Shown here in pieces: positions 2,460 through 32,517 of a stretch of 32,517 nucleotides of DNA (position 1 is the first letter of the stretch; every line of letters starts with the position of its first letter). A program made the position numbers and the translations under genes. Origin of the DNA: Chiloscyllium plagiosum. Taxonomy: Eukaryota. The notes beneath the pieces are model-generated. The model was not told where the DNA came from. It searched no databases and was given only the letters and a program-made list of their open reading frames with translations. Where the stretch lies: contig NW_025214724.1 of NCBI RefSeq assembly GCF_004010195.1, positions 1-32,517 on the forward strand, given 5' to 3'.

Positions 2460-4070
2460 AAATGGATGTTGACGTGGACAGCAGGAGAACTCTGTTCTTC
2501 CCTGGGTCTTAAAAGTGGTGGCTAATGAGATTGTGGATGCATTGACTTCCATCACACTGGAAAGTAACAAATATAACCTTGTTCAAGAAGTGAGGGAGGC
2601 AGAAAATAGGAAACTATCAACAAATTGATTTGATGTCTGTCATGGAAAGGTGTCAATCATTAGTGGCACCTGGAAAAATTCAAATTCATCAGTTAGAATC
2701 AGCTTGGTTTTGTGAAAGATCAGTGGTGTTTAATCAATTTAATGGAACTCCTTGAAGGAGTAACTCAGGCTGTGGATAAGGGAAAGCTGTTGATGTTATG
2801 TACTGGGCTTTCCAGAACATATTCAATCAGGTTCCGCACAAAAAGGTTATTGCACAAAGTCAGAGTTCATGGTGTACTTGCATTGAAAAATGATTAGCTG
2901 GTTGGAGAACACAAGCAGCATGCATAAAGGGGTCTTTCTCAGATTGGCAGGATCTGACAAGATAGGTTCCATGGTGACCTATGCTGGGCTATCAATGCTT
3001 TACAATTTACATCAAAGAAAACATGAAGTTGTTCACATTAGCAGTGAATTATTTAAATGGATAGCAACTGCAAAATTCCAAGCTGCAGGGGGATATAAGT
3101 GATTTAGAACATGAATCACAAAAAATATTATGCAAGGTACAACAAATCATTAAGAAGGACAATGGAATATTACAACAAGACTTAAAAGTAAGGATGTTAT
3201 GCTTCAATTATATATAGGATTGGTGAAATTACTCCTCAAATACTGCGTGCAGTTTTTGTTTCTTTATTTAAAGAAGGATAGAAATGCTTTATTGGCTACT
3301 CACAGGTCATTTACTCGATTGTTACTGAAACAAATGGGTCATCTTATGAGGGAGGACTGGATAGACTGGAGTTCTTTTTGCTGGAAATCAGAAGAGTGAG
3401 GGGTAGATTGACTGAGTGTTTAAGATCTTGAGTGGTTTTGACAAGGTAAGGATGTTTACTCCTGTGGGTCACTCCAAAACTACTGCATGCAGTTTTAAAA
3501 TCAAGGGTCACCCTTATAGTATAGGGTTGAGGGTAAATACTTCTTCTCAGTTGTTTGTGTAACTTTGAAATCTCTGTCTCAGAAGGCAGTGGAGGCAGTA
3601 TCATTAAATATTTTTTAAAGCAGATAGATTCTTGTGAAGCAAGGGAATCACATGTTACTGGGGTAAATAGGAATGTGGAATTCTGAAGATAAACAGGTTG
3701 ACTGTGATCTTAGATTAGATTACTTACAGTGTGGAAACAGGCCCTTCGGCCCAACAAGTCCACACTGACCCTCCGAAGAGCAACCCACCCAGACCCATTC
3801 TCCTACATCTAATACCACGGGCAATTTAGCATGACCAATTCACCTAAACTCCACATCTTTGGACTGTGGGAGGAAACCGGAGCACCTGGAGGAAACACAC
3901 GCAGACACGGGAAGAATGTGCAAACTCCACACAGATAGTTGCCTGAGGCAGGGATTGAAGCCGGGTCTCTGGCGCTGTGAGGCAGCAGTGCTAACCACTG
4001 AGCCACAGTGCCGATCTTATTGAATAGTGAAAGGAAAGCCAAATGGCCAATTTCTGCTACTAATTCATAA
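2460..4070 (+). mobile_element. CR1 LINE ORF2 (RT) and 3' end, decayed, interrupted by a SINE at 3713-4012
   Basis: Frameshifted CR1 RT motifs: LKVVANEIVDAL, LFKK..RQKIGNY, CLINLMELLEGVTQAVDKG, KRLLHKVRVHG, LQLYIGLVKLLLKYCVQF (consensus-like LYRALVRPHLEYCVQFW). Confidence 0.85.
3713..4012 (-). mobile_element. HE1-like tRNA-derived V-SINE
   Basis: Minus strand starts GGCACTGTGGCTCAGTGGTTAGCAC (A box) with a B-box-like GCTTCAATCCC and an ATCTA-repeat tail. TSD GATCTTA at 3706-3712 and 4013-4019. Similar to four other copies in the window. Confidence 0.9.
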
Positions 4071-5248: not shown

Positions 5249-5428
5249 CATGATGTGGACGTGCCGATGTTGGACTGGGATGGACAAAGTTAAAAATTAC
5301 ACATCACCAGATTGTAGTCCAACAATCAGGACTAGCTACTTGATGACGGAGCAGCGCTCTCAGAGCTTGTGCTTCCAAATAAACCTGTTAGACTATAATC
5401 TGGTGTTGTATGACCTTTTTTAACTTGT
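5249..5428 (-). mobile_element. Penelope-like pLTR remnant, family B, fold-back with a dead hammerhead
   Basis: Diverged copy of the 26475-26876 element. Inverted arms ACAAAGTTAAAAATTACACATCACCAGATTGTAGTCCAACA and TGTTAGACTATAATCTGGTGTTGTATGACCTTTTTTAACTTGT. Decayed core TTGATGACGGAGCAGCGCTCTCAGAGCTTG at about 5340-5369. Confidence 0.8.
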
Positions 5429-5797: not shown

Positions 5798-6161
5798 ATC
5801 ATAGAATCATAAAATTCCTACAATGTGGAAGCAGGCCATTCAACCCATTGAGTCCACATGCTAACTCCAAAGAGCATCCCAACCAGATCCAGACCCTACC
5901 CTATCCCTGCAACCCTGCTTTTTCCTATGGCTAATCCAACTAGCCTGCACATCCTGGTCACTATGCGAACTTTAGTATGGCCAATCCACCTAACCTGCAC
6001 ATCTCTAGACTGTGGGAGGAAACTGCGTGCCTGGAGGAAACCCACACAGACACAGCGAGAATGTTCAAACTTCACACAGACAGTCGCCTGAGGGTAAAGT
6101 CAAACCTGGGTCCCTGGCGCTGTGAGGCAGCAGTACTAATGACTGAGGCACCATGCTGCCC
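5798..6161 (-). mobile_element. HE1-like V-SINE
   Basis: Same head and body as 3713-4012, with a TCTATGAT-type tail. Interrupts the Gypsy pol frame. Confidence 0.9.
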
Positions 6162-6540: not shown

Positions 6541-8750
6541 TTAGCTATAACAGAGCAAATATCTTTGATCACTGCTACGCCACTATGAAAAATGCCTACC
6601 ACTCCATCTCCTGCACCCATTTTGGGAACTCTGATCACAGTGCCGTGTTTCTTCTTCCAGCTTACAGGCAAAAGCTCAAGCAGGAGACCTCCTCGCTGAT
6701 ACAGGTCCAGTGCTCTTCAGAGGAGGCAGAGGATCAACTCCAGTGCTGTCTGGAATCAGTTGACCATGTTCAAACTGTCCGCAGGTACCTTGGACGAGTA
6801 TGCCACCACCATCACAGATGTTATCAGAAAGTGTGTGGGGGACTAAGGAAGTCATTCAGGTGTTCCCCAACATGAAACCCTGGATGAATCAGGACATGCA
6901 GAATCTGCTAAAAACCAGCCGTGAGGCCTTCAGATCATGAGACCCACTCAAATGTAAGGAATCCAAGTATGACCTTAGCAGAGCCATTAAGAAAGCCAAG
7001 GACCAATGCTGATCCAAACTAGAGACCCAGACAGACACCCAGAGACTATGGCAAGGACTGAATGACATCACAGGTTCTAAAAGAGACAGTGCAAGATAGC
7101 AGACGATGACATATCCCTCCCAAATCTTCTCAACACCTTCTATGTTTGCTTTGAGCACAATTTTAGTGGAGAGGTAACATCTATTCCAATAAGTCCTGAT
7201 GAACCTATCCCAACAATCACTGCATCATAGGGTCAGATCAGATTTCCTCCGTGTGAATCCAAGGAAGGCGATGGGACCCGACGGAGTACTAGGCCATGCA
7301 CTCAAAACATGCGAAGATCAATTGGCATAGATCTTCTCGGGCATCTTCAACTTCTCCCTGCAGCAGGCCATTGTCCCTGTCTGTTTAAAGAGGGCCAACA
7401 TCATCCCTATGCCTAAGAAGGCTCATGCAGCATGTCTCAATGAGTACCACCCAGTGGCCCTAACTTCGGTGGTCATGAAGTGCTTTGAAAGGCTAGTCAT
7501 GGCATTAACCAACTCCAGCCTCCCATTACTCTTGACCCACTCCAATTTGCCGAACAGATCCATGTTAGATGACATACACTTGCCCTTCACTCCTTCCTAG
7601 TACATCGTGACACCAAGAACAGCTATATAAGAATCCTATTCATTGACTACAGTTCAGCTTTCAACGCTACTATCTCCTCAAGACTGATTACTAATATTAG
7701 TGATCTTGGACTACGCTCCACATTCTACAACTGGATCCTTAGTTTCCTGACCCACAGGCCACATTCAGTGAAGACTTGAGACAATATTTCATCCTCAATT
7801 ACACTCAACACTGGAGCCTCCCAGGGGTGTGTACTCAGCCCTATACTGTACTCACTATATACCCATGACTGCATCGCCAAATACCCGACTAATGCCATTT
7901 ACAAGTTCACTGATGACACCACCATAGTCGGTCAAATCTCATATGGCAACAAAAACAGACTACAGACGGGAGATGGAAGACCTGGAAAAATGGTACACTG
8001 AGAACAACCTAGCTCTCAATGCCGGCAAAATCAAGGATCTCTCATTATTAGCGTTCGCCGGGATGTTATTCATGCCCCCCCTACACATTAACAGCACAGA
8101 GGTGGAACAAGGGGACAGTGTCAAGCTCCTGGGAGTGGTCATTCGCAACAAGCTTTCTTGGGCTCTTCATGTGGTCTCACTGGTAACAAAGGCCAAACAA
8201 CGTCTCTTCTTCCTCAGGCAGCTGAGGAAATTTGGCACGAAGGCAAATACCCTTGCCAACTTTTACAGGTGTGCCATCGAGAGCATTCTGTCTGGATGTA
8301 TCACTACCTGGTATGGCAACTGTACCATTCGAGATCGGAGACGGTTACAGAGAGTGATGAACTCGGCCCGGACAATCACAAAGGCCAACCTCCCATCTAC
8401 AGAATCAATCTACCTGGCCCTCTGTCAAGGAAAGGCCACTAGCATTCTCAAAAATCCATCCCACTCTGGCAATGTTTTTCTACAACCTCTACCATCGGGG
8501 AGAAGATACAGAAGCCTGAACACATGCACCAGCTGGTTTCAAAACAGTCTCTACCCTACTGTTGTTAGAATACTGAATGGATTCACAAACTCTTAACATT
8601 CACCTGTACCTGTGTTTTTCTTTTTGCCGCTGTTTACCTATTATTTACTTATCTATATAGGCTACTTAACTATGTGATCTGCTTGTATTGCTCACAAGAC
8701 AAAGCTTTTCACTGTGCCTCGGTACACATGACAATAAATTCAATTCAATT
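6541..8750 (+). mobile_element. Rex1/Babar LINE, 5'-truncated; endonuclease end and RT with stops and frameshifts
   Basis: FDHCYATMKNAY...HFGNSDHSAVFLLPAYRQKL (endonuclease end); PKKAHAACLNEYHPVALTSVVMKCFERLV; FIDYSSAFN; TGASQGCVLSPILYSLYTHDC; YKFTDDTTIVG; C-terminal ORF 7943-8596 ending LPSGRRYRS. Tail GACAATAAA followed by TTCAA repeats. Confidence 0.93.
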
Positions 8751-9592: not shown

Positions 9593-10003
9593 TATTCGAG
9601 AGGGTGGAGCTGGAAAAGCACAGCAGATCAGGCTGCTCCAAGGAGCAGGAGAATCAACGTTTCAGGCAAGAGCCCTTCATCAGGAATGAGGCTTGTGTGC
9701 CAAGGGGGTGCAGAGATAAATGGGAGGGGGGTGGGGCTGGGGGGAAGGTAGCTGAGAGTTGGTAAGTTGGAGCTTTCCCAGCTCCCTTACCCTAGCCCCA
9801 GCTCTTGCACCAGCCCTTCCCCCAGCTCCAGCCCCCTCCCATTTATCTTCCACCCCCTCGGCTCACAAGCCTCATTCCTGATGAAGGGTTCTTGCCCAAA
9901 ATACTGATTCTCCTGCTCCTCGGATGCTGTCTGACCTGCTGAGCTTTTCCAGCACCACACTCTCAACTGTGATCTCGAGCATCTACAGTCCTCACTTGCT
10001 CCA
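9593..10003 (+). mobile_element. Penelope-like pLTR fold-back insertion, family A
   Basis: Inverted arms at about 9596-9750 and 9812-9966, then a 37-nt unpaired tail. Exact 11-bp TSD GGTTTCTTCAC at 9582-9592 and 10004-10014. Confidence 0.88.
9652..9687 (-). ncRNA. Minimal hammerhead ribozyme motif, near-intact
   Basis: Reads AUUC-CUGAUGA-A-GGGC-UCUU-GCCU-GAAACGUU-GAUU. Core intact, G.U at the base of stem II, GUU triplet, weak stem I. Confidence 0.65.
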
Positions 10004-10440
10004 GGTTTCTTCACAAGGTCAATCGTGTCATGATACTCAAAATCTAAGTTATCTAACTCTCTCATCAAAACATTCTGCATGCATTTGTACAGGACCTTTG
10101 TAACTTTTCAATGGGTCTATTATGTGCCTCCACTCTCATCACATTGTTTACTGAGATATGCTATAGCTCTTTGCAATGACCCAATCCTAAGACAGCAGGC
10201 CAAATTGTTTCAGTGATGGAAAACATCCATATAATATCCTTTCCTTTATGCATCCCTTTGGTTTGTTTTTAGCTGTCGAATTTGATTTTCCTCATACAGT
10301 ATTGGCACAACATTGTTCATTTTCAAAATAACTTTCCTCAACTATTTTCCTTCACATTTTCAGTAAAGACCTATTGCTATAGCCTGACTGGGGGTGATGT
10401 TACTCTGTGCTATCGTATCAAGTGTTGGTTTCTGATTTAT

Positions 10441-11388
10441 GACCATAATAAGACCTTAAAGAGTAGGAACAGGAGTAAGCTGTTCGCTCCATTGAAGCTG
10501 CTCCACCATTCAATAGGATTATGACATTCCTCAGGTCCACTTTCCTGCCCTTTGCTCAAAACCCTTGGAAGCCTCTACTCGTCAAGAATCTATTTGTCTC
10601 AGCCTTAAATATTCACAAGGAATCTGTCCCCATAGCTTTCTGTGGCAAGGAATTCTGAAGACTTACAACGCTTTGAGAGAAAAAAAATCCTCATCTCTGT
10701 CCTAAATTGGCACCCCTTTATTCTGAAACTATACCAAGACTCTCCATGATGGGAAACGTCCTCTCAGCATTTACCCTGTCAAACCCCTTAAGAACCCAAA
10801 TGTTTCAATGAGATCATTTCTCATTCTTCTCAACTCTAATGAGTAGAGTCCTAACCTGAAGCCTCTGCTCATAAGTAAATCCCTCCATATTACTGTTCAT
10901 CAGAATCTTCTCTGAACTGCTTCAGGGAACAAAACTTCTCACAGTATTCCAGATGTGGTCACACCAGCACCTAGTACGGTTGCAATAAGACTTCCCTACT
11001 CTCATACTCGAACCTCCTTGAATAAGAATTAACATTGCATTCGCCTTCTTGGTTACCAGCTACACCCGTGTGCTAGCTTTTTGTTTCATGTACCCCCAGT
11101 CTCTTTATATTGTAGCTTTTTGCAGTTTTTCTCCACTTAAAGAATAGTCTGTTCTGTTGCTCTCAAAAATGACTAACTTTGTACCTTCCCACATTATACT
11201 CCACCGGACAACGTTTTCCCACTTATCTCTCCACAAGCTGTTTGTATTCCTCCTACAACTTGCCTTTCCACCGAGTTGAAATACCCAACAGCCATGATTA
11301 AATTGCAGAGTGGACTCGATGGGCCGAGAGGCCTTACTTCCACTCCCATGTCTTATGGTCTTATTTTTGCATAATCTGCAAATCTGGC
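10441..11388 (-). mobile_element. CR1 LINE 3' fragment, with a short plus-strand CR1 3' end at about 11273-11363
   Basis: CR1-type tail TCTTATGGTC in both orientations; minus-strand LEYCEKF-like and ARFADY motifs. Confidence 0.8.
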
Positions 11389-11389
11389 T

Positions 11390-12050
11390 TCCTCTAGGGT
11401 TGTAGACTTATTTCTCATCCTCTTTCTGATCTGAATGGTTGAGTGAGTTTTGTTTCTGTGGGATCTGCTGCACCATCTACTTCATGTCGTAACTCATTTG
11501 CCCTATTCGATCTTTATTCCACACACCGTTTCCCAGTGATTGGGCTTTCCATAAGCTCTGCAGTTTGAACCATATGTCAGGTACTTTTCTTTCTGGGAAC
11601 TCAAGTGATTGTCCACGGCTCCTGAACGTCCTTCTGTCTGTCTCGTGTATGTTCTTTTGTTGCTATTCCACTGTATGAGCCCAGCTGCCTTTCCCTTTGC
11701 TGAACTGAAAGTTAGCCATTGATCTGACAGACAACCATTGCTGCCATGTTATGTTTTCTTGTTCCCAAAAGCTTGAATTAACCATATTTTAAATTCAAAA
11801 TGTTAGCACTTCATTTCATGCATTTGTGGCAGCTTTCATGTGGGTGGTGGGTTGAAACTTTGTTCTGTATCTCTACATCCAGTATAACAATCCAATTCTT
11901 AAGGCTTGGAAGATGATTAAACAAAAGAAGCTGAATTTCATTCCAACTGTCACATATTCCAGACAATGCATGCAGACTAGCTACATATTTCACCAGGACT
12001 TAAACCTTGATTGTTGAGACACAGTTTTTATGGATATCTGCAAATAAACA
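11390..12050 (-). mobile_element. Gypsy gag fragment, decayed
   Basis: Minus-strand YGSNCRAYGKPNHWETVC at 11521-11574 is a CX2CX4HX4C zinc knuckle with one Cys changed to Tyr. Collinear with the protease-RT fragment. Confidence 0.7.
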
Positions 12051-12190
12051 TTCCAGTGCCATTCTCTTCTTCATCAGAGTGAAGCTCCAATAAAGGTAAA
12101 AACAGGTGGTCTTTGGGATGTTGTGAATGTATGTAAACAATCAGCCTCAGAGATCTGCCAGTGAGAGAGATTGAATCAGTGGCTAAAAAC

Positions 12191-12224
12191 ATCCTGAAGA
12201 AGGGCTCATGCCCGAAACGTCGAT
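12191..12224 (+). ncRNA. Minimal type I hammerhead ribozyme, intact core; predicted cleavage after C12221
   Basis: AUC-CUGAAGA-A-GGGC-UCAU-GCCC-GAA-ACGU-C-GAU: stem I AUC/GAU, stem II GGGC/GCCC, palindromic ACGU stem III, GUC triplet. Confidence 0.85.
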
Positions 12225-12282
12225 TCTCCTGCTCCTCAGATGCTGCCTAACCTGCTGTGCTTTTCCAGCACCACACCCTCGA
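12193..12282 (+). mobile_element. 90-bp Penelope-like pLTR insertion, family A
   Basis: Exact 9-bp TSD TAAAAACAT at 12184-12192 and 12283-12291; family A body. Confidence 0.9.
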
Positions 12283-12742
12283 TAAAAACATTTGTGGCAG
12301 GAAATGAAAATAATGGCTTTGATGTTCACGATATTGAGTCAGAGAAAATATCTGTCCAAACTGTATTGTATATTGGGCACGCAATGTTACAACTTGGAGC
12401 CCAGTTTGGGTCAGGGGACACTATTAAGCCAAATGATAGTGAGTTAGAGTTAAGGGTGTTCAACGTACGTGCGGAAACTGATGTTGTCAGGTGGTGTCAA
12501 AGAGGTGCAGCATGTGTTGAAAAAAAAAGGATTAGGTATAGATCCTTGGAGAAACCACTATCAACACTGTAGAAGTGGGAAAAGAAACTCTTTTACAGGT
12601 GACTTCCTAGGGACAACTGGATAGAGAAGAAAGAAACCAGCTAAGTAAAATCATATCCAGTTGGATGATGATCAAGGAGGGATGCTGGAATTATATGGCC
12701 AACCATATCTAAGGTGCAATAGGTCAAGGAGACATGGTTTAT

Positions 12743-12957
12743 CAGCATCTATGGAGAGAGAAAAGAGAAACAGAATTACAATTCCATGTTTGATATGACA
12801 CTACTTTGGAACTGAAAATAATGCAGTAGAGTCATATCAGACTCGAAACATTTCATTAATTTCTCTTTCCACAGATGCTGCCAGGCATTCTGAGTTTCTC
12901 CAGCACTTTCAGTTCTTCTTTCAGATTCCTAGCATTTATAGTACTTAGCTTTTATTT
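12743..12957 (+). mobile_element. Old Penelope-like pLTR fold-back remnant, family D
   Basis: Stem II GAGTC-ATATCA-GACTC followed by GAAACATT (12829-12852), then CACAGATGCTGCCAG...CTCCAGCACTTTC. Decayed inverted arm CAGCATCTATGGAGAGAG on the left. Confidence 0.65.
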
Positions 12958-13006
12958 GGCTAATTATAATTCTCACACTACAGCAGAATAACATGTTTAA
13001 TAGTGA

Positions 13007-13133
13007 CAAGATTGTGGTGCTGGAAAAGCACAATACGTCAGGCAGCATCCGAGGAGCAGGAAAACTGAAGTTTCGGGCAAAAGCCCTTTATCAGGACTCT
13101 AAACTCCAGTATCTGCAGTCCTCACTTTTGCCT
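13007..13133. mobile_element. Penelope-like pLTR insertion, family A: inverted body plus direct tail
   Basis: Exact 14-bp TSD ATGTTTAATAGTGA at 12993-13006 and 13134-13147. Minus-strand mutated core CTGATAAAGGGCTTTTGCCCGAAACTTC. Confidence 0.9.
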
Positions 13134-13339
13134 ATGTTTAATAGTGATTTTGCTGTAATTACAAGATACCATCTGAGAAAAATTCATCTGATTGTAAGTC
13201 AATCATGAGGGAAAGCTAGCCAAAACTGGAATTCTTACTCAACTAATTTTGTAAAAATCACTAGAAAGCCTGCAGAAAGCAAAACACACTGTTCAGAAAT
13301 GTGCAAAGTTGGCCATTATCAGCAAGGCAAACGCTGAAT

Positions 13340-14538: not shown

Positions 14539-14671
14539 TCTGGAGAAGAGTCATTTGTGATTTGAATTGTTAACCGTTTCTCTTGTCACAGCTGCTGCTA
14601 GACGTCTGAATTCTTCCAGCACTTTCTGGTTTTATTCCAGATTCTAGCATCTGCAGTATTTCACTTGTATT
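14539..14671 (+). mobile_element. Old Penelope-like pLTR remnant, family D
   Basis: Decayed core TCTGGAGAAGAGTCATTTGTGATTTGAATTGTTAAC followed by CCAGCACTTTCTG...CAGATTCTAGCATCTGCAGTATTT. Confidence 0.65.
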
Positions 14672-17000: not shown

Positions 17001-17172
17001 AGAGTCAAGATTTCAAGTCCAGTGACCCTTTGTCAGAATTGTTCTGATGAAGGATCACAGGACTCAAAATTTTAACTCTGCTTCTCTCTCTTTGGATGTT
17101 GCCAGACTTGCCAAGTTTCTGCAGCACTTTCTGTTGGCGTTCCAGGCTTCCAGAAGACCTTTACTTTTATTT
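17001..17172 (+). mobile_element. Old Penelope-like pLTR fold-back remnant, family D, two decayed hammerheads on opposite strands
   Basis: Minus strand TTCTGACAAAGGGTCACTGGACTTGAAATCTTGACTCT (17001-17038) and plus strand TTCTGATGAAGGATCACAGGACTCAAAATTTTAACTCT (17042-17079), 3 bp apart. Confidence 0.75.
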
Positions 17173-19046: not shown

Positions 19047-19325
19047 GGGTGGCACAGTAATGCAGCGGTTAGCATTGCTGCCTTTCAGCACCAGGGACCG
19101 GGTTCAATTCCAGCCTTGGCTGACTACCTATGTGGAGTTTGTATGTTCTCCCCATGTCTGCATGAGTTTCCTCCAGTTTCCTCCCACAGCCCAAAGATGT
19201 GCAGGTCAGGTGGATTGGCCATGCTAAACATGGGGTTATCAGGATTGGGTAGGCAGGTGGGTTGCCCTTCGTAGGGTCAGTACAGAATCAATGGGCTGTA
19301 TCGCCTCTTCCTAGGAATTCTATGA
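19047..19325 (+). mobile_element. HE1-like V-SINE, older copy
   Basis: GGCACAGTAATGCAGCGGTTAGCATTGCTGCC...GGTTCAATTCC head, V-domain-like TGTGGAGTTTGTATGTTCTCCCC, ATTCTATGA tail. Confidence 0.85.
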
Positions 19326-19524: not shown

Positions 19525-20420
19525 AACAGGTAATGCATGTAAGAGGTTCTCCCTCCATGCCTTGCTTGACACAAGCTATTAGACTGCCATCTTGACAGTG
19601 GCTTGTCCCTGCCACAGGTCACTAAACACATCTAGTGCCCTCCTTAAAATTTCACACAAGTGGGTGGGTATGTAGTGAGAAGGCCATGTACTGAATTTTA
19701 CAAGCCTCCTACTTTCAGACCGGCCAGCAGGGGAGTAAAAAAAATCCAGTTCAGGAAATGTTGCTGAAGTTTATATTATAATCTAACGAGTGCTTTACCT
19801 GTTCATGTGCACAGTTCTAAGAAGAAACAAGATATATTTAAAATTAATAAAGACTCAATTGAATATAGAATTCAAGAGCTGAGAGAATATTAAGTCAGAC
19901 ACAAATCTACACGCAATAGCACTGCTGTCAGAAAACACTAATGTTGGCCTGATCGTGCAACTTGATCCATTCTGCTTTCTAGACTCAAGATTGCAGGAAG
20001 CGATCAATGAGTTAATGACATTAAAACTGTAGTAAATTTGTGCGATGTAGGTGTAGGTAGAGGAGGTGAGTCAGGCATTCATTTTACATCAAATGTAAGG
20101 CTGCAGCATTATTTTAAAGCATGTCAAGAAGTATTGATGGGTGAATGGTATTTTTATCTGTTCAGTTTTAAACAAGATAATGGATCCGAAAGTTAGGGAA
20201 GACAGGAATTTCAGCCAAATGTGTTAGTATTCCTCAGTGATCACTTCCTTGTCCAATCTATGTGGGCATTGCTCCATCTACAAATGTCCATTTCAACCAA
20301 CCAGGCAATCATCTGAGTATCTGAATTAGGGACTTCATGCTTGTTAAAGCTTCTTTTTCATAATCAGTGAGTGATGAACAATGGAGACACTGAACATACT
20401 TAATTTATAAGGATATTTCA

Positions 20421-20578: not shown

Positions 20579-20728
20579 AGAGTCAAGATTAGAGTGGTGC
20601 TGGAAAAGCACTGCAGGTCTGACAGCATCCGAGGAGCAGGAAAATTGACGTTTTGGTCAAAAAGCCTTTTCCAGCACCACTCTAATCTTGACTCTAATTG
20701 CCAGCATCTGCATTACTCACTTCTCCCT
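20579..20728 (+). mobile_element. Penelope-like pLTR fold-back insertion, family A, hammerhead core deleted
   Basis: Perfect 30-bp inverted repeat at 20579-20608 and 20666-20695, then a 33-nt tail. TSD ATCTGTC(T/A)GTGAGAG at 20568-20582 and 20729-20743, partly overlapping the left arm. Confidence 0.88.
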
Positions 20729-21039
20729 ATCTGTCAGTGAGAGGCCAGTCCTATCAAAATTTAAACAGGGCTCCCCAGCCTTTATAGGTATTCAGATCAC
20801 CGATTCTCACTTTCAATCGCTCTTTCCAACTTAGTTCCTTGAACTTAACTGAGGCAATTGCAACAAACCAACACAGATTTCTCTTGAGTTAGCAAAGTGA
20901 TCCTAGCTTGTGTTGCAACAATCTTCAGCTGACGAGACTAATTTGACTAAAAGCTGAGGCCCAACTTCAGCTGGACCACGATTCAACATATTCTTGAACA
21001 GAAAACGTTTCTAGAACCAATAAGCACTATCATTGCAGC

Positions 21040-23706: not shown

Positions 23707-24010
23707 GATTAGATTAGATTCCCTACAGTGTGGAAATAGGCCATTCGGCCTAACAAGTCCACACCGACCCTCCGAAGAGTAACCCACCCAGACCCATTTC
23801 CCTCTGACTAGTGCACCTAACACTATGGGCAATCTAGAATGGCCAATTCACCTGACCTGCACATCTTTGGGCTATGTGAGGAAACTGGAGTACCTGGAGG
23901 AAACCCAAGCAGACACTGGGAGAATATGCAAACTCTACACAGACAGTCGCCCAAGGCTGGAATTGAACCTGGAACCTTGGCGCTGTGAGGCAGCAGTGCT
24001 AACCACTGAG
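23707..24010 (-). mobile_element. HE1-like V-SINE, about 10 nt 5'-truncated, inside CR1
   Basis: Closely similar to 3713-4012; ATCTA-repeat tail. Confidence 0.92.
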
Positions 24011-24320
24011 TATGTGGAAACCGAAACTCAGAACTAAACATTCAGGGGTATTTGTGACCTTTTGAAAGGACAGGCAGAAAGAAATTGGTGGCAGAGTTGT
24101 ATTGTTAGTATGTGATATAATTAGCATATCAGCAAGAAATGATCTTGGATCAGATCATGTAGAATCCATACAGGTGGATATACGAAATAACAATGGGCAG
24201 AAGACACTAGTGGGAGTAGTGTATAGGCCCCAAACAGTAGCTGTTTTGAAGACAGAGAATACATCAAAAAACAATATGATCATGTAAATACATTAATCAT
24301 GGTAACTTTACTCTTTATGT

Positions 24321-24640: not shown

Positions 24641-26528
24641 TCATGTAGATTGGGAAAATCAAATTGGCTGAGTAAGAACTTATAGAATATATTTAGGATG
24701 GTTTCCTCGAACAATATGTTAAGAATAATACAAGGGATGTTGCTATTTTGGATTGGTTAATGTATAATGCGGGAGGTTTAATAAATGATATCAGAATAAA
24801 GGATCTCACAGATGACAGTAACCATACCATGGTAGAATTAAGAATTCAGTTTGAAAGTGAGAATCTGGATCAGAAATGTTAAACTTAAAATAAGGATAGT
24901 TCACATAGAAATGAGAGCAGAATTGGTTGGAGTGAACTGATAAAGGAGTTTAACAGAAGAGATGGGAGCCTATAAATGGCAGAGGAGTTGAATAAATACT
25001 TTGCATCACTCTTCAAAGTAGAGGCCTCAAATAGCATTCCAAACTTACTAAGTAATCAAGAGGTTAAGACCGGGGTGATGGAGGAAATAAGCACCATAAT
25101 TGTCATGAGAGAAAATGGATTCAGGAAACTAATGGGGCTAAAGGCTGCTAAGTTCCCTGGTCACAATGGATTGTGTCCTCAAATATTTGAGAAAATAGTT
25201 GCGGAAATGGTGACTGAACTGGTAGAAAACTTAAAGGAATCCTTAGGTTCTGGAAAAGTCCCAGAGGATTAGAAGTTTCTCAACATCACCCTTATTCAAA
25301 ATGGGAGGGAGACAAAAAATGTTTGCATTTATAAGCCAGTTATCCTAACATTTGTTATTGGGAAAATATTAGAGTATATCATGAAGGATGTAATACAGGA
25401 TTGGCTAAGCAACAAATGACAGAGGTAGGAAGAATAGGCATTTTCAGGAAGTCAACCCATAACTAATGGAGTGCCAAAGGTATGTGTTGGGGTCATAACG
25501 AATGACAATAAATGTTAAAGACATGAAAAAAGAAAATGAATGTATTTTCACCAGGTTTGCAGGTAACCCAAAATTGCATGGCAAGTAGTTAGCATGACAT
25601 AAGGAGTCTATAGAGTGATACTGACAGGTTAAGTGAATGGGCAAAAACTTGGCAGATGGAATATTGTGTGGAAAGTGGGCTTTGGCAGAAAGAATTAGAA
25701 GAACTGAATATTACTTACGTGGAAATGACTGCAGAAAGGTGCAGCACAGAGTGATTTGGAGGTTCGAGTGCATGAATCACAAGAAGTCAGCATCCACTTT
25801 TAGGAGGTAATAGGGAAAGCAAATGGAATGTAGTCTTCTACTTCCCTTGAACAGTGAAGAGTTTTGGTCCCTTTATTTACTGGGATTGGAGACAATCTTC
25901 AAAACGTTCACTTGGCTGAAGGACTGTCTTATGAGGAAAGGTTGAGTGGGTTAGGCCTGCCCTCATTGGAATTTAGAAGAATGAGAGGTGACCTTATTGA
26001 AACACACAACTTTCTTAGAGGACTAACAGGTAGATATGCTGAGGTTATTTCTTCTTGTGGGAGGTTCTAGGATCAGAAGGCATAATCTTCAGGTAAGGAG
26101 TCATCCATTTATGACAGAGATGAGGAGGGTAGTCAATCTGTGGAATTTCACTGAAGAGGGTTGAGAAGTCTGGGTCATTAAGTATATTCAAAGCTATGAA
26201 AGACAGATTTCTAATCATTAAAGGAATAAAGGATAATGGGGTTAAAGAAGGAAAATTGAATTGAGAATTATCAGATCAGCCACGATCTCATTGAATGGTG
26301 CAGCACACCTGATGGGCTGAACGGCCTACTTCTGCTCCTGTGTCTTATGATCTTATGCTGGGGGCAATCAGATACTGCCATTCTGTCCCAGAAATATGAA
26401 GATGAAACATGCTGTTGTTATGAAAAAGGAATGGCTTAATTTGCTGAAGGCTGGAAGGAACCAATGTCTAGGCAAAGTTAAAAATCACACAACACCAGGT
26501 TATAGTCCAACAGGTTTAATTGGAAGCA

Positions 26529-26563
26529 CACTCGCTTTCGGAGCGACGCTCCTTCATCAGGTG
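26529..26563 (-). ncRNA. Hammerhead motif with U16.1 changed to G, predicted inactive
   Basis: Mirror copy reads CAC-CUGAUGA-A-GGAGCGUCGCUCC-GAAAGCGA-GUG; the change is at 26533. Confidence 0.65.
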
Positions 26564-26752
26564 ATTGTGGAGGGCTCGATCGTAACACAGAATTTATAGC
26601 TGAAATTTGTAGTGTGATGTAACTGAAATTATACATTGAAGAATTGATGTATAATTCTTCAATTATAATCAATTCTTCAATGTATAATTTCAGTTACATC
26701 ACACCGCAAATTTTAGCTATAAATTCTGTGTTACGATCGAGCCCTCCACAAT

Positions 26753-26787
26753 CACCTGATGAAGGAGCGTCGCTCCGAAAGCTAGTG
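26753..26787 (+). ncRNA. Minimal type I hammerhead ribozyme, intact core; predicted cleavage after A26784
   Basis: CAC-CUGAUGA-A-GGAGC-GUC-GCUCC-GAA-AGCU-A-GUG: stem I CAC/GUG, 5-bp stem II, palindromic AGCU stem III, CUA triplet. Confidence 0.82.
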
Positions 26788-27419
26788 TGCTTCCAATTAA
26801 ACCTGTTGGACTATAACCTGGTGTTGTGTGATTTTTAACTTTGTACACCCCAGTCCAACACCGGCATCTCCGAATCATGTCTAGGCACACATGGCAAAGT
26901 GTACCAATGCAACAATGGCATCATTTGTCAGCCAGTGGCACTTAATTCTGATGAGATTGTGTTAATTCTCAATCAAGGATTATATACTTCCCTATTTTCT
27001 GGCAGTATGAATTGAAGACTCTGTTTTAATTGGATGAAATTTTCTTTTATTTTAAATTTAAATTGAGAGAATGGTGTTTTAGGCAAACTGAACTATTGGT
27101 GGTCATGGTTACTGTGGGAAAAGGGGAAGCTACTGAGTAATAATGAAGTGTCAACTGAAGTGGCCTTGTGTGAACTTACATGATTCTTATTGACTGATGT
27201 TGCGGTGCATCTGCTGGAAAGGGCATTGGTTGTGGCTGAGCAAAACTCCAGAAAGCTTGTTTTATTTCCTTTTTCAGCTCAGCCTTGTTCAGATTGTGTT
27301 TTCATTGTCCAGTGTGACAGATCCTTTTGCAATTGTCATATCATGGGAAAATGTAAGTTATGAAAGAGATTAAAAAATTTCATCTACCACACGAAGTCCT
27401 AATTGATGGCATGCCATCA

Positions 27420-28522: not shown

Positions 28523-30926
28523 GTAAGGTCCAACATATTCCCTCTGCTACCTTACACTCACAGGGCCACCACTCACACTAACTCTGTCACTGCACACATC
28601 TCTCACCAAGGCTCATGGACTACATCTCTCATTATTGAATGCATCCTGTCCACTCAATAATTTTCACCCACCTCATCCCCCTAAAGTACTAATTCCTCCT
28701 GATTTCTGCGCTTACTGCCCACTCAGTGGAGACAACTCACCACCTCTTCTGCTCTTTCATCCATTTCAATCAGATTCAATTTCTCCCTTTTTCTCATTAC
28801 CGGAGACTTTGCTCACCTTGCACATTTCCACAACACCCTGACCGAGCTGAACTGCAAGATAATGAATCCCTGGACTCAATAATTAAGCAATATCAACTCA
28901 CTGAAGTAGAATTGGATGGGCCTCTTCACTGACTGTGGCAAGACTCCTTTACTGACTGGATCACCCTTGACCCCAGTAGATGGGTTTTACTCTCCTTTGA
29001 TTTTTGGGCATAGCCATTTGTTTGAAGCATATACAGTATGTTTTCTGTGTACATTTTTAGCACAGGTTGCAAGTCTGACATTGCAAGTAGCACGATGCTG
29101 TCCACTGATAAGTCCACAGACCTTCACTATTCAATGCTTTCTATCACGACAAACTACCTACCTCTCCCTCTGCACTATAGAGCAATACCAGATACAGAGG
29201 CTCAGCCTATCACCAAGTGCTGAAGATCATGTACTCTAAAAAGAACTGGTGGAAGCATCCAAGTGAGCACAAAGTGAGTGAGCACTAAGAAAGCAAACTA
29301 AAGGCCATAAGATGCAACCTGTACCCATGCATGAGAAACATATGCGTCCCTTTGTGCAGCGACTTGGAAGAAGCATGTAATGTGTAGATTTCCTGAGCTT
29401 CAAAATGAAGTATTGAAGGACTGAAATAATGTGCGAGTTGGTCCAAGAGCAGGACTGAAGAAGTAGTGAGGGTGTTGGTTTGCCACAGTTAATTGGCATG
29501 TAAAAAGGGTCGAGAGGTTGACGTCAATGGAACATGGAGGAAAATCAACTGAAGACATAGTTGGATGATGGCTGTGACAAGAAGTTGACAGGGTGCAGCT
29601 GTCAAGTACCTATTCTGTTTTACATGTCAAAATTTACACCAGCTCATTTCCCAAGGATGAGGAGAATTGGAAATGGTGAATAAATAGGGTGTATTGGACC
29701 ATTAATAACATGGAAATGAACAGAAAACAAGTAGTTGCCACTCACTAGCAAGATTTCAAAGTTGCCATTGCCAGGGAAAAATTAGAATAAAGTATGTCAA
29801 AATTCTCACTTTATTTTCCCACCTTTCTTGTCATTGCCCACATGAGGTGAGATACGCTCCCCACAATCTCTTTCTTTTTGTTTCTTTCCTTCCTAGTGAC
29901 AATGTTTCAATTGGAAAATTATCTGCTAAAGGTTAAATTAAAGACAAACTGATCCTGACATTAAAGTTAACATTTGGGATCTTCTTTTCTTAGGCAACTA
30001 TTTTATTTAAATTGGAATTTTAAAGAGCCTATGTAAGAAAGATATAGATTTTTAGGACACAAGCCTCCAAACATCATTCCAGTATTAGACATGTTACTGG
30101 TAGCAGGGAGGTTGCTATACATTGAATGCATGATTCACGACAGGGAAGAAATGAAATTTGGAAGGTCTGTTATCTTTGATTACGACAAAATGGCTACGTT
30201 CAGCAGCACAAGCAGAGACATTGGTGGGCCGAATTTTTCAGTTCAAGCAAACCAAACGTGAGGATTAAAAACTTGGCATTGGACTAACTGGTTTGAAGCT
30301 ACTGGAATCAAGCCAATTTGTTTCACTCCCCTGTATATCCAATAGTGATACAGGTTTTAAATATCATCCAGGTATTTCTTTCAGAAACAGACCACTTCGC
30401 TGGAATCTGATCCTATTTACATTTTTAGAAAACAACCCCATGGCAACTCAAAAACTTCCTTCTACATCTTTGAATATTTTAAAATGATATATGAACTATT
30501 TTATCACAGCATTTCTTTCTGTAAACAATTTCTGATGACAAAGCAAATGTGAGAGAGGGAGAGAAATAAATTTGGGCTCAGATTTTTGTCCCTTTATGGA
30601 GATAGGATTGCGGTTGGGAATATCAATTATCTTGTTCTCCATTTTGAATTTTCAGTGCCTTCCCAGCCTCTAACTATTTTCTAATAGCCATTTCATAGGT
30701 CAGAAATACTTGGATCATGAGATCATCATTGACAGCCCCAGCAGAAATTAGATTTTTCTATCTTAGGATATTTTTATAGAGGTGGGTGCATTTTAACAGT
30801 TCATGCATTCCATGGGAAACCTGCTGAGGAATCTAGAATATTCTGAGAGTAGAGTGTAAAATATCATTATTAGATGCTACCTTGTAAGTTGGACTGATTA
30901 TAGAGCTTTGCTCTGGAAAGGTAATC

Positions 30927-31246
30927 ATCATAGAATCCCAAAATGTGGAAACAGGCCTTTCAGCCCAACACCTCCACACCAACCCTCTGAAGAGTAACCA
31001 TCTAGACCCATTCGCCCTCCCCTATATTTACCCCTGACTAATGCACCTAACCTACACAACCCTGAACACTATAGGCAATTTAGCATAGCCAATCCACCTA
31101 ACCTGCACATCGTTGGACTGTGGAGGAAACCCAATCTGATGTGGGGAGCATGTGCAAACTCCACATAGACAGTCACTTGAGGCTGGAATTGAACCTGGGT
31201 CCCTGCTGCTGTGAGGCAGCAGTGCTAACCACTGAGCCATCGTGCC
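30927..31246 (-). mobile_element. HE1-like V-SINE with internal deletion
   Basis: Minus-strand GGCACGATGGCTCAGTGGTTAGCAC...GGTTCAATTCC head; same body as the other copies. Confidence 0.9.
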
Positions 31247-32363: not shown

Positions 32364-32517
32364 GTTTGTTGTGGTTGTGTTTGCCGAGCTGGGAATTTGT
32401 GTTGCAGACGTTTCGTCCCCTGTCTAGGTGACATCCTCAGTGCTTGGGAGCCTCCTATGAAGCGCTTCTGTGATCTTTCCTCCGGCATTTGTAGTGGTTT
32501 GAATCTGCCGCTTCCGG
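32364..32517 (-). mobile_element. Penelope-like pLTR, family C, runs off the window edge
   Basis: Abrupt switch to CpG-retaining sequence containing an intact hammerhead on the minus strand. Confidence 0.78.
32404..32443 (-). ncRNA. Minimal type I hammerhead ribozyme, intact core; predicted cleavage between 32407 and 32406
   Basis: GCA-CUGAGGA-U-GUCACCU-AGAC-AGGGGAC-GAA-ACGU-C-UGC: stem I GCA/UGC, 7-bp stem II with one A.G mismatch, palindromic ACGU, GUC triplet. Confidence 0.85.

Follow-up and report, generated by a model that had tools for sequence, protein, structure and literature searches.

The 90-bp insert at positions 12193-12282 (+) of the window, the whole 32,517-nucleotide stretch of Chiloscyllium plagiosum DNA that was analyzed, is one copy of a very high-copy repeat and most likely a terminal repeat (pLTR), shortened at its 5' end, of a Penelope-like element (PLE). 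The estimated probability of this reading is about 0.87. The copy would have been laid down by target-primed reverse transcription, and its hammerhead core is intact but probably idle. On this best explanation, the hammerhead serves the life cycle of the parent element and is not a function of the 12193-12282 locus, which is ordinary, a short representative of a repeat found very commonly.

A duplication-flanked insertion

The initial annotation described a 90-bp insert within a 9-bp target-site duplication (TSD), and both parts of that description hold. The motif TAAAAACAT is present exactly at 12184-12192 (left copy, +) and at 12283-12291 (right copy, +). The pair is not extendable, and no third occurrence is found on either strand of the window. 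The insert fills the 90 bp between the copies, with CTGAAGA (12194-12200) beginning one base in, and T12192 is common to the TSD and the element, a 1-nt microhomology. At 20,000 random window positions, an exact 9-bp flanking repeat of the same spacing, within 3 nt on each side, occurred by chance 12 times. The duplication-flanked 90-bp insertion is real, and its 9-bp repeat is the kind of short target-site duplication expected of Penelope-like elements. Reads were compared from four of the 24 runs listed, X13 (organism B), X16 (organism C), X21, and X15; there is no empty-site joint among the 15 joints listed, so the TSD is deduced from the flanking repeat. The insert had also been called little more than a hammerhead, which overstates the case. 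The ribozyme takes up about 32 of the 90 nt (12193-12224), and the remainder is the family's downstream repeat sequence.

The hammerhead

All core positions had been read as intact, and a descriptor search agrees that the insert holds a complete minimal type I hammerhead. The descriptor matches at 12194 with a 3-bp stem I and a predicted cut after C12221. Matches in the window are at 12194 (+), 26756 (+), and 9683 (-), and 300 dinucleotide shuffles of the whole window produced 1 match. Rfam returned 0 matches at gathering score in the whole window; in 12100-12400 it returned no hammerhead at E≤10, and 3 unrelated sub-threshold matches.

The 5' strand of stem I is AUC (12191-12193, +), in which A is target-only, U is shared, and C belongs to the element. 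It is followed by core positions C3 to A9, CUGAAGA, and an extra unpaired A (A12201), together spanning 12194-12201 (+); the extra A is typical of PLE minimal hammerheads (min-HHR; PMC4209133). Core position N7 is A in the insert and U in 4/5 aligned siblings. Stem II (12202-12213, +) has 4 bp, GGGC/GCCC, with a 4-nt loop and the G10.1-C11.1 closing pair (G12202-C12213), and its predicted pair probability is 0.93-0.99 across four local contexts. Positions 12214-12221 (+) contain G12 to A14, the palindromic ACGU (12217-12220), and C17 (12221), after which the cut is predicted. The 3' strand of stem I, GAU, follows at 12222-12224 (+), as matched by the descriptor. The consensus CUGANGA...GAAA...UH is thus found at 12194-12200, 12214-12217, and 12220-12221, stem II contains the G10.1-C11.1 pair, A9 is followed by a base left unpaired, and positions 15.2-16.2 are palindromic (ACGU, 12217-12220) and form no stable helix III. 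The palindrome could pair only between two copies, in line with the earlier view that helix III needs a partner copy.

The predicted probability of stem I is 0.003-0.02. This was tried as an argument against cleavage and dropped; two other families in the window have native stems that score 0.001, and the fold is non-discriminating. The segment 12214-12226, which holds the catalytic GAAA, the cut site, and the 3' strand of stem I, is an imperfect 13-nt palindrome and a feature of the family. It is predicted to give an inactive self-duplex stabler than helix III, possibly a built-in off state.

The repeat family

The insert belongs, as a single arm, to a repeat family that has five loci within the 32.5-kb window, and it is 84-88% identical to five sibling arms. 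All sibling loci (4/4) are inverted and two-armed, the insert itself is single-armed, and duplications of 11-15 bp flank 3/4 of the sibling loci. The sibling inverted insertion at 9596-10004 has a tail-less minus arm with an intact core (cut predicted after 9656), a tailed plus arm, and an 11-13-bp duplication, and it supplies the family's native upstream sequence. The nearest antisense partner of the insert is the fold-back insertion at 13007-13134, made up of an antisense arm (13007-13096) and a tail (13096-13134) within a 14-bp duplication. Two further tailed fold-back insertions lie at 20586-20729, with a 15-bp duplication containing 1 mismatch, and at 1917-2082, where no clear duplication was found. 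Two kinds of 3' end are present. The insert shares the family's tail-less end (12282) with 9685 (-), 13096 (-), and 20677 (-), and tails of about 38 nt are seen at 9876 (+), 1962 (+), 13096 (+), and 20666 (+). None of the five loci is head-to-tail.

In run X13, 58,690 contigs match the family repeat and a second repeat at 11300-11364 taken together; this is a count of contigs, not a copy number, and from it the family is judged to be very high-copy. Run X16 (organism C) holds only other family copies, the flanks of the insert being absent. Searches with the family motifs gave 0 matches in metagenome contigs and 0 in viral contigs.

Several related elements share the window. Older copies of related repeats, at 12860-12956, 14577-14671, and 17030-17149, share the downstream motif and have cores that are decayed. 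A second hammerhead family occupies 26464-26887, with 176-nt arms that are 98% complementary, an 11-bp duplication, and a tail on the plus arm. Its hammerhead at 26756 is an intact minimal type with a native 3-bp stem I and a predicted cut after 26784, and its minus arm differs at the cut site. This copy looks younger than the 12193-12282 insert, and an older copy of the same family is found at 5249-5426. A third family at 32389-32517 (-) has a hammerhead-like core at 32440, in which stem II is longer and imperfect and stem I has 3 bp; its arm runs off the end of the window. These two further families have the same core and different paired stem II sequences.

The 5' junction

The target site was originally credited with two stem I bases, AT. 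Of the two, only A12191 is exclusive to the target; T12192 is the element's own base as well as the last base of the TSD. The double identity of T12192 follows from two long sibling arms, which read CCTCATTC upstream of the core, and from the loose ends before 12192, which finish in CCTCAT in 4/4 read runs. A12191 places an A-U pair where the native stem I has a U-U mismatch. Either A or G would pair at this position, and these make up 51% of window bases. For the most part, the target finishes stem I through one-base microhomology and one lucky base.

Six arms were aligned to the long arm at 9876 to count 5' starts, leaving out that reference arm and two tail-side stubs. Relative to C3, 3/6 start at -1/-2, 2/6 at +6/+7, and 1/6 at -67. 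Since half begin at -1/-2, starting at the core's edge is a habit of the family, whose 5' ends cluster immediately upstream of the core instead of at the site of cleavage. Read-run joints at 12192 were excluded from the support for this clustering because the reference also stops matching the family at 12192. Because the copy extends across the cut site, its template had presumably been left uncut or been religated.

Age

Not all CpGs are intact, as had been supposed; 4/5 survive. The three core CpGs are intact, and the lost one, at 12237-8, reads CA where siblings have CG (4/5) or TG (1/5). The description of the insert as young stands only in part. It is younger than its neighbors, keeping 4/5 CpGs versus 1-2/5 in the sibling arms, but within its 90 bp 4 positions clearly differ by substitution from the siblings (12198, 12238, 12249, and 12277), loop II is variable, and its left junction appears filled in a second species. 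The insert is only relatively young.

That second species is organism B (X13), where a single contig covers 11300-12216, reaching 24 letters past the left edge of the insert, and shows 32 differences over 917 positions. Organism B thus appears to carry the same left junction, although these 24 letters on the insert side compare with a bridging rule of 31, and the crossing makes it likely that the insertion predates the split from organism B. On the right flank, the contig begins at 12283, leaves 2 letters unaligned, does not span the right junction, and has 18 differences in 577; overall flank divergence is 3.1-3.5%. At the insert's own divergence, the neutral probability that all 25 critical sites survive is 0.19-0.25, so the intact core needs no selection.

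Origin of the insert

PLEs combine inverted pLTR arrangements, an optional 30-40-nt tail, and 8-10-bp duplications (PMC3846280, PMC8557442). The family shows the optional 30-40-nt tail past a fixed 3' end, as well as 5' truncation and inverted pLTR arrangements. The PLE assignment rests on this structure because no RT or endonuclease frame of a parent element was reached. Among 501 candidates, no match at E≤0.01 linked an RT or GIY-YIG domain to the family. The representative protein library gave 2 matches, neither of them an RT (P0001, an unrelated repeat protein, and P0002, a PDZ gene model). By Pfam, the 106 window frames of at least 66 aa contain no RT or GIY-YIG domain except in a LINE-type RT remnant at 7780-8593.

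The proposed route begins with an element-encoded nuclease that would nick the two strands of AT-rich DNA at sites offset by 9 nt, as the observed duplication suggests. Reverse transcription would then start at the nearer of two internal sites and so yield the tail-less end at 12282; this step draws on the two kinds of 3' end seen in siblings and on the two-start mechanism of PMC11167929. Synthesis would pass the uncut ribozyme site, halt at the core's upstream edge, and join the target through the 1-nt microhomology; the junction is observed, and this is its probable cause. The copy would have drifted neutrally afterwards. Two features sit less well with a truncated PLE: CpGs are better kept than in all five sibling arms, and stem I has one Watson-Crick pair more than the native stem.

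There is a remote chance that the insert is instead a monomer of a non-autonomous retrozyme, a tandem hammerhead repeat copied via a small circular RNA, and not the truncated end of an autonomous element. The insert is indeed short, non-coding, and hammerhead-bearing, and monomer derivatives are known, including in the one chondrichthyan sampled (bioRxiv 10.64898/2026.07.22.740005). Yet the five window loci include no head-to-tail tandem, the siblings are inverted and tailed, and 5' ends scatter from -67 to +7 relative to C3. The insert also ends away from the cut site, unlike a unit-length cleaved monomer. More remote still is the later deletion of a tailed arm from what was once a larger fold-back insertion. 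The two-armed structure of 4/4 sibling loci would suit such a history, but exact TSD copies abut the single arm with no leftover bases, and organism B apparently has the same left junction. A PLE pLTR truncated at its 5' end during reverse transcription remains the preferred explanation.

As such a product, the insert is a clean example of the tail-less single arm predicted by the two-start model of PLE reverse transcription, and it presumably illustrates a template copied through an uncut ribozyme site. It matters little beyond this, as one neat copy among very many.

Would the core cut RNA?

Cleavage of a plus-strand transcript at the 12193-12282 copy is unlikely, judging from published PLE hammerheads, predicted folds, and the window's other copies. 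In the form first proposed, the transcript would be cut after C12221, with another family copy giving helix III in trans and the target completing stem I. Every core position is intact and a 3-bp stem I is possible. Partner RNAs exist in cells, since polyA run X21 contains family RNA on both strands (depth 797 and 1044 at 12201-12253). Contigs from X15, which is RNA by guess only, cover unique flank sequence at 11717-12030 and at 12668-12860 and show 0 differences there. Dimeric constructs of a Schistosoma minimal hammerhead were cleaved at a low level (PMC4209133). The same paper, however, reports inactive monomers and little cleavage of dimers. In PMC11167929, cutting by the anole PLE hammerhead required its protein, and RNA-seq gave no reads with a start or end at the anole site.

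Predicted energies also disfavor cleavage, at -1.7 kcal/mol for helix III (the ACGU self-duplex) versus -6.1 for the competing self-duplex at 12214-12226. The antisense arm at 13007-13096, 737 nt downstream, would form a duplex of -128 kcal/mol with the insert. When 12150-13150 is folded, the core is predicted to pair with this antisense sibling at a mean probability of 0.82 and stem II is lost, an outcome that applies only to transcripts long enough to include 13096. In the window, no plus-strand copy is both compatible as a partner and intact in its core: the remaining family arms on that strand (1962 and 9876) have lost GAAA, and the second family's palindrome is incompatible. Depth in X21 is 0 on the unique flanks 11618-12147 and 12307-12860, in about 2% of this polyA single-cell run. 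No pile-up of read beginnings or ends occurs in that 2%, and polyA single-cell reads suit a cleavage test poorly. Taken together, trans-cleavage with target-completed stem I seems very unlikely.

A bolder version, a shade less probable again, holds that the family has seeded many thousands of complete cores, each with stem I finished by an adjoining host base, and that a subset including this insert cuts host transcripts in trans where family RNA or element protein is abundant. The idea that cores are seeded complete derives from the tendency of family insertions to stop at the core's upstream edge. If true, conditional cleavage sites would have been spread through a vertebrate transcriptome by a transposon.

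Reading frame and other window features

Positions 12240-12282 (+) are likely the start of the element's open reading frame, its first 14 codons, and the sibling frames run on through the tail. In PMC3846280, the pLTR holds the first 12 aa, or 22 with the tail. The longer open frame at 12240-12572 was considered as coding and rejected: 5/5 checked organism B differences change a residue, one of them to a stop, and organism B has a 1-base insertion at 12519.

The Chiloscyllium plagiosum protein XP_043542746.1 (the PDZ gene model, P0002) ends in a translated family copy, which places the family in bamboo sharks. It joins a PDZ exon to the family frame at a point equivalent to a candidate splice acceptor at 12205-12239 (+), just before the ATG at 12240. 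There, CpG decay at 12238 makes an AG after a run of 13/14 pyrimidines, with a branch-like CTCAT 31 nt upstream. Judging from this protein, decayed family copies may be exonized. No reads support an exon at 12205-12239, and in organism B the frame downstream of it is disrupted. Pfam detects no host-gene exon in the 106 window frames.

A dispersed repeat of about 300 bp, presumably a SINE, has five copies in the window (3710-4012, 5804-6157, 19063-19281, 23709-24020, and 30924-31246). The LINE-type RT remnant at 7780-8593 (+) is frameshifted and matches the Pfam domains RVT_1 (E 1.2e-6) and ALKBH8_N (E 1.4e-9). Another high-copy repeat ends in segment 11300-11364. Part of this segment is matched by about 18,000 X21 reads that stem from a single abundant transcript, and in several contigs family arms are joined to the repeat near 11364.

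Comparison with known systems

Animal non-LTR retrozymes (bioRxiv 10.64898/2026.07.22.740005) resemble the insert in being non-coding, bearing a type I hammerhead, and deriving from PLE pLTRs. They are defined by tandem units, each with a hammerhead, whereas the window has none.

PLEs that carry an endonuclease (Arkhipova et al. 2013, PMC3846280; Craig et al. 2021, PMC8557442) share with the window family the tail, the inverted pLTR arms, microhomology at the 5' junction, and a frame that starts inside the pLTR. Their duplications are 8-10 bp, versus 9-15 bp in the window family. The insert differs from their insertions in having a single arm of only 90 bp, and assignment to the Penelope/Poseidon, Neptune, or Nematis clade needs an RT. 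A literature search for shark and elasmobranch PLEs found nothing on this hammerhead family.

Poseidon PAc of the green anole (Frangieh et al. 2024, PMC11167929) has two internal RT starts that bound the tail, as the ends of the window family do. PAc uses AT-rich targets and inserts from ribozyme-uncut RNA, unprocessed RNA being its main substrate; the insert, known here from its sequence, is likened to it in both respects. The insert's probable start codon falls downstream of the cut site, whereas that of PAc is at stem II.

The closest likeness in the ribozyme itself is to the min-HHR of the pLTRs of metazoan PLEs (Cervera and De la Pena 2014, PMC4209133). Those motifs are mostly dispersed and single, come from truncated elements, and are predicted to need a dimer. 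The insert's CUGAAGA core and CGUC recur in vertebrate PLE rows of the supplement, along with a stem I of 3 bp; a word search of one supplement file gave no shark or skate entry. The insert shares with the min-HHR CUGANGA, the unpaired base before stem II, G10.1-C11.1, the palindromic 15.2-16.2, the lack of a loop III, and a possible short stem I. Its stem II has 4 bp, in contrast to 7-8 bp in the Schistosoma families, and the insert differs further in drawing one stem I base from its target site.
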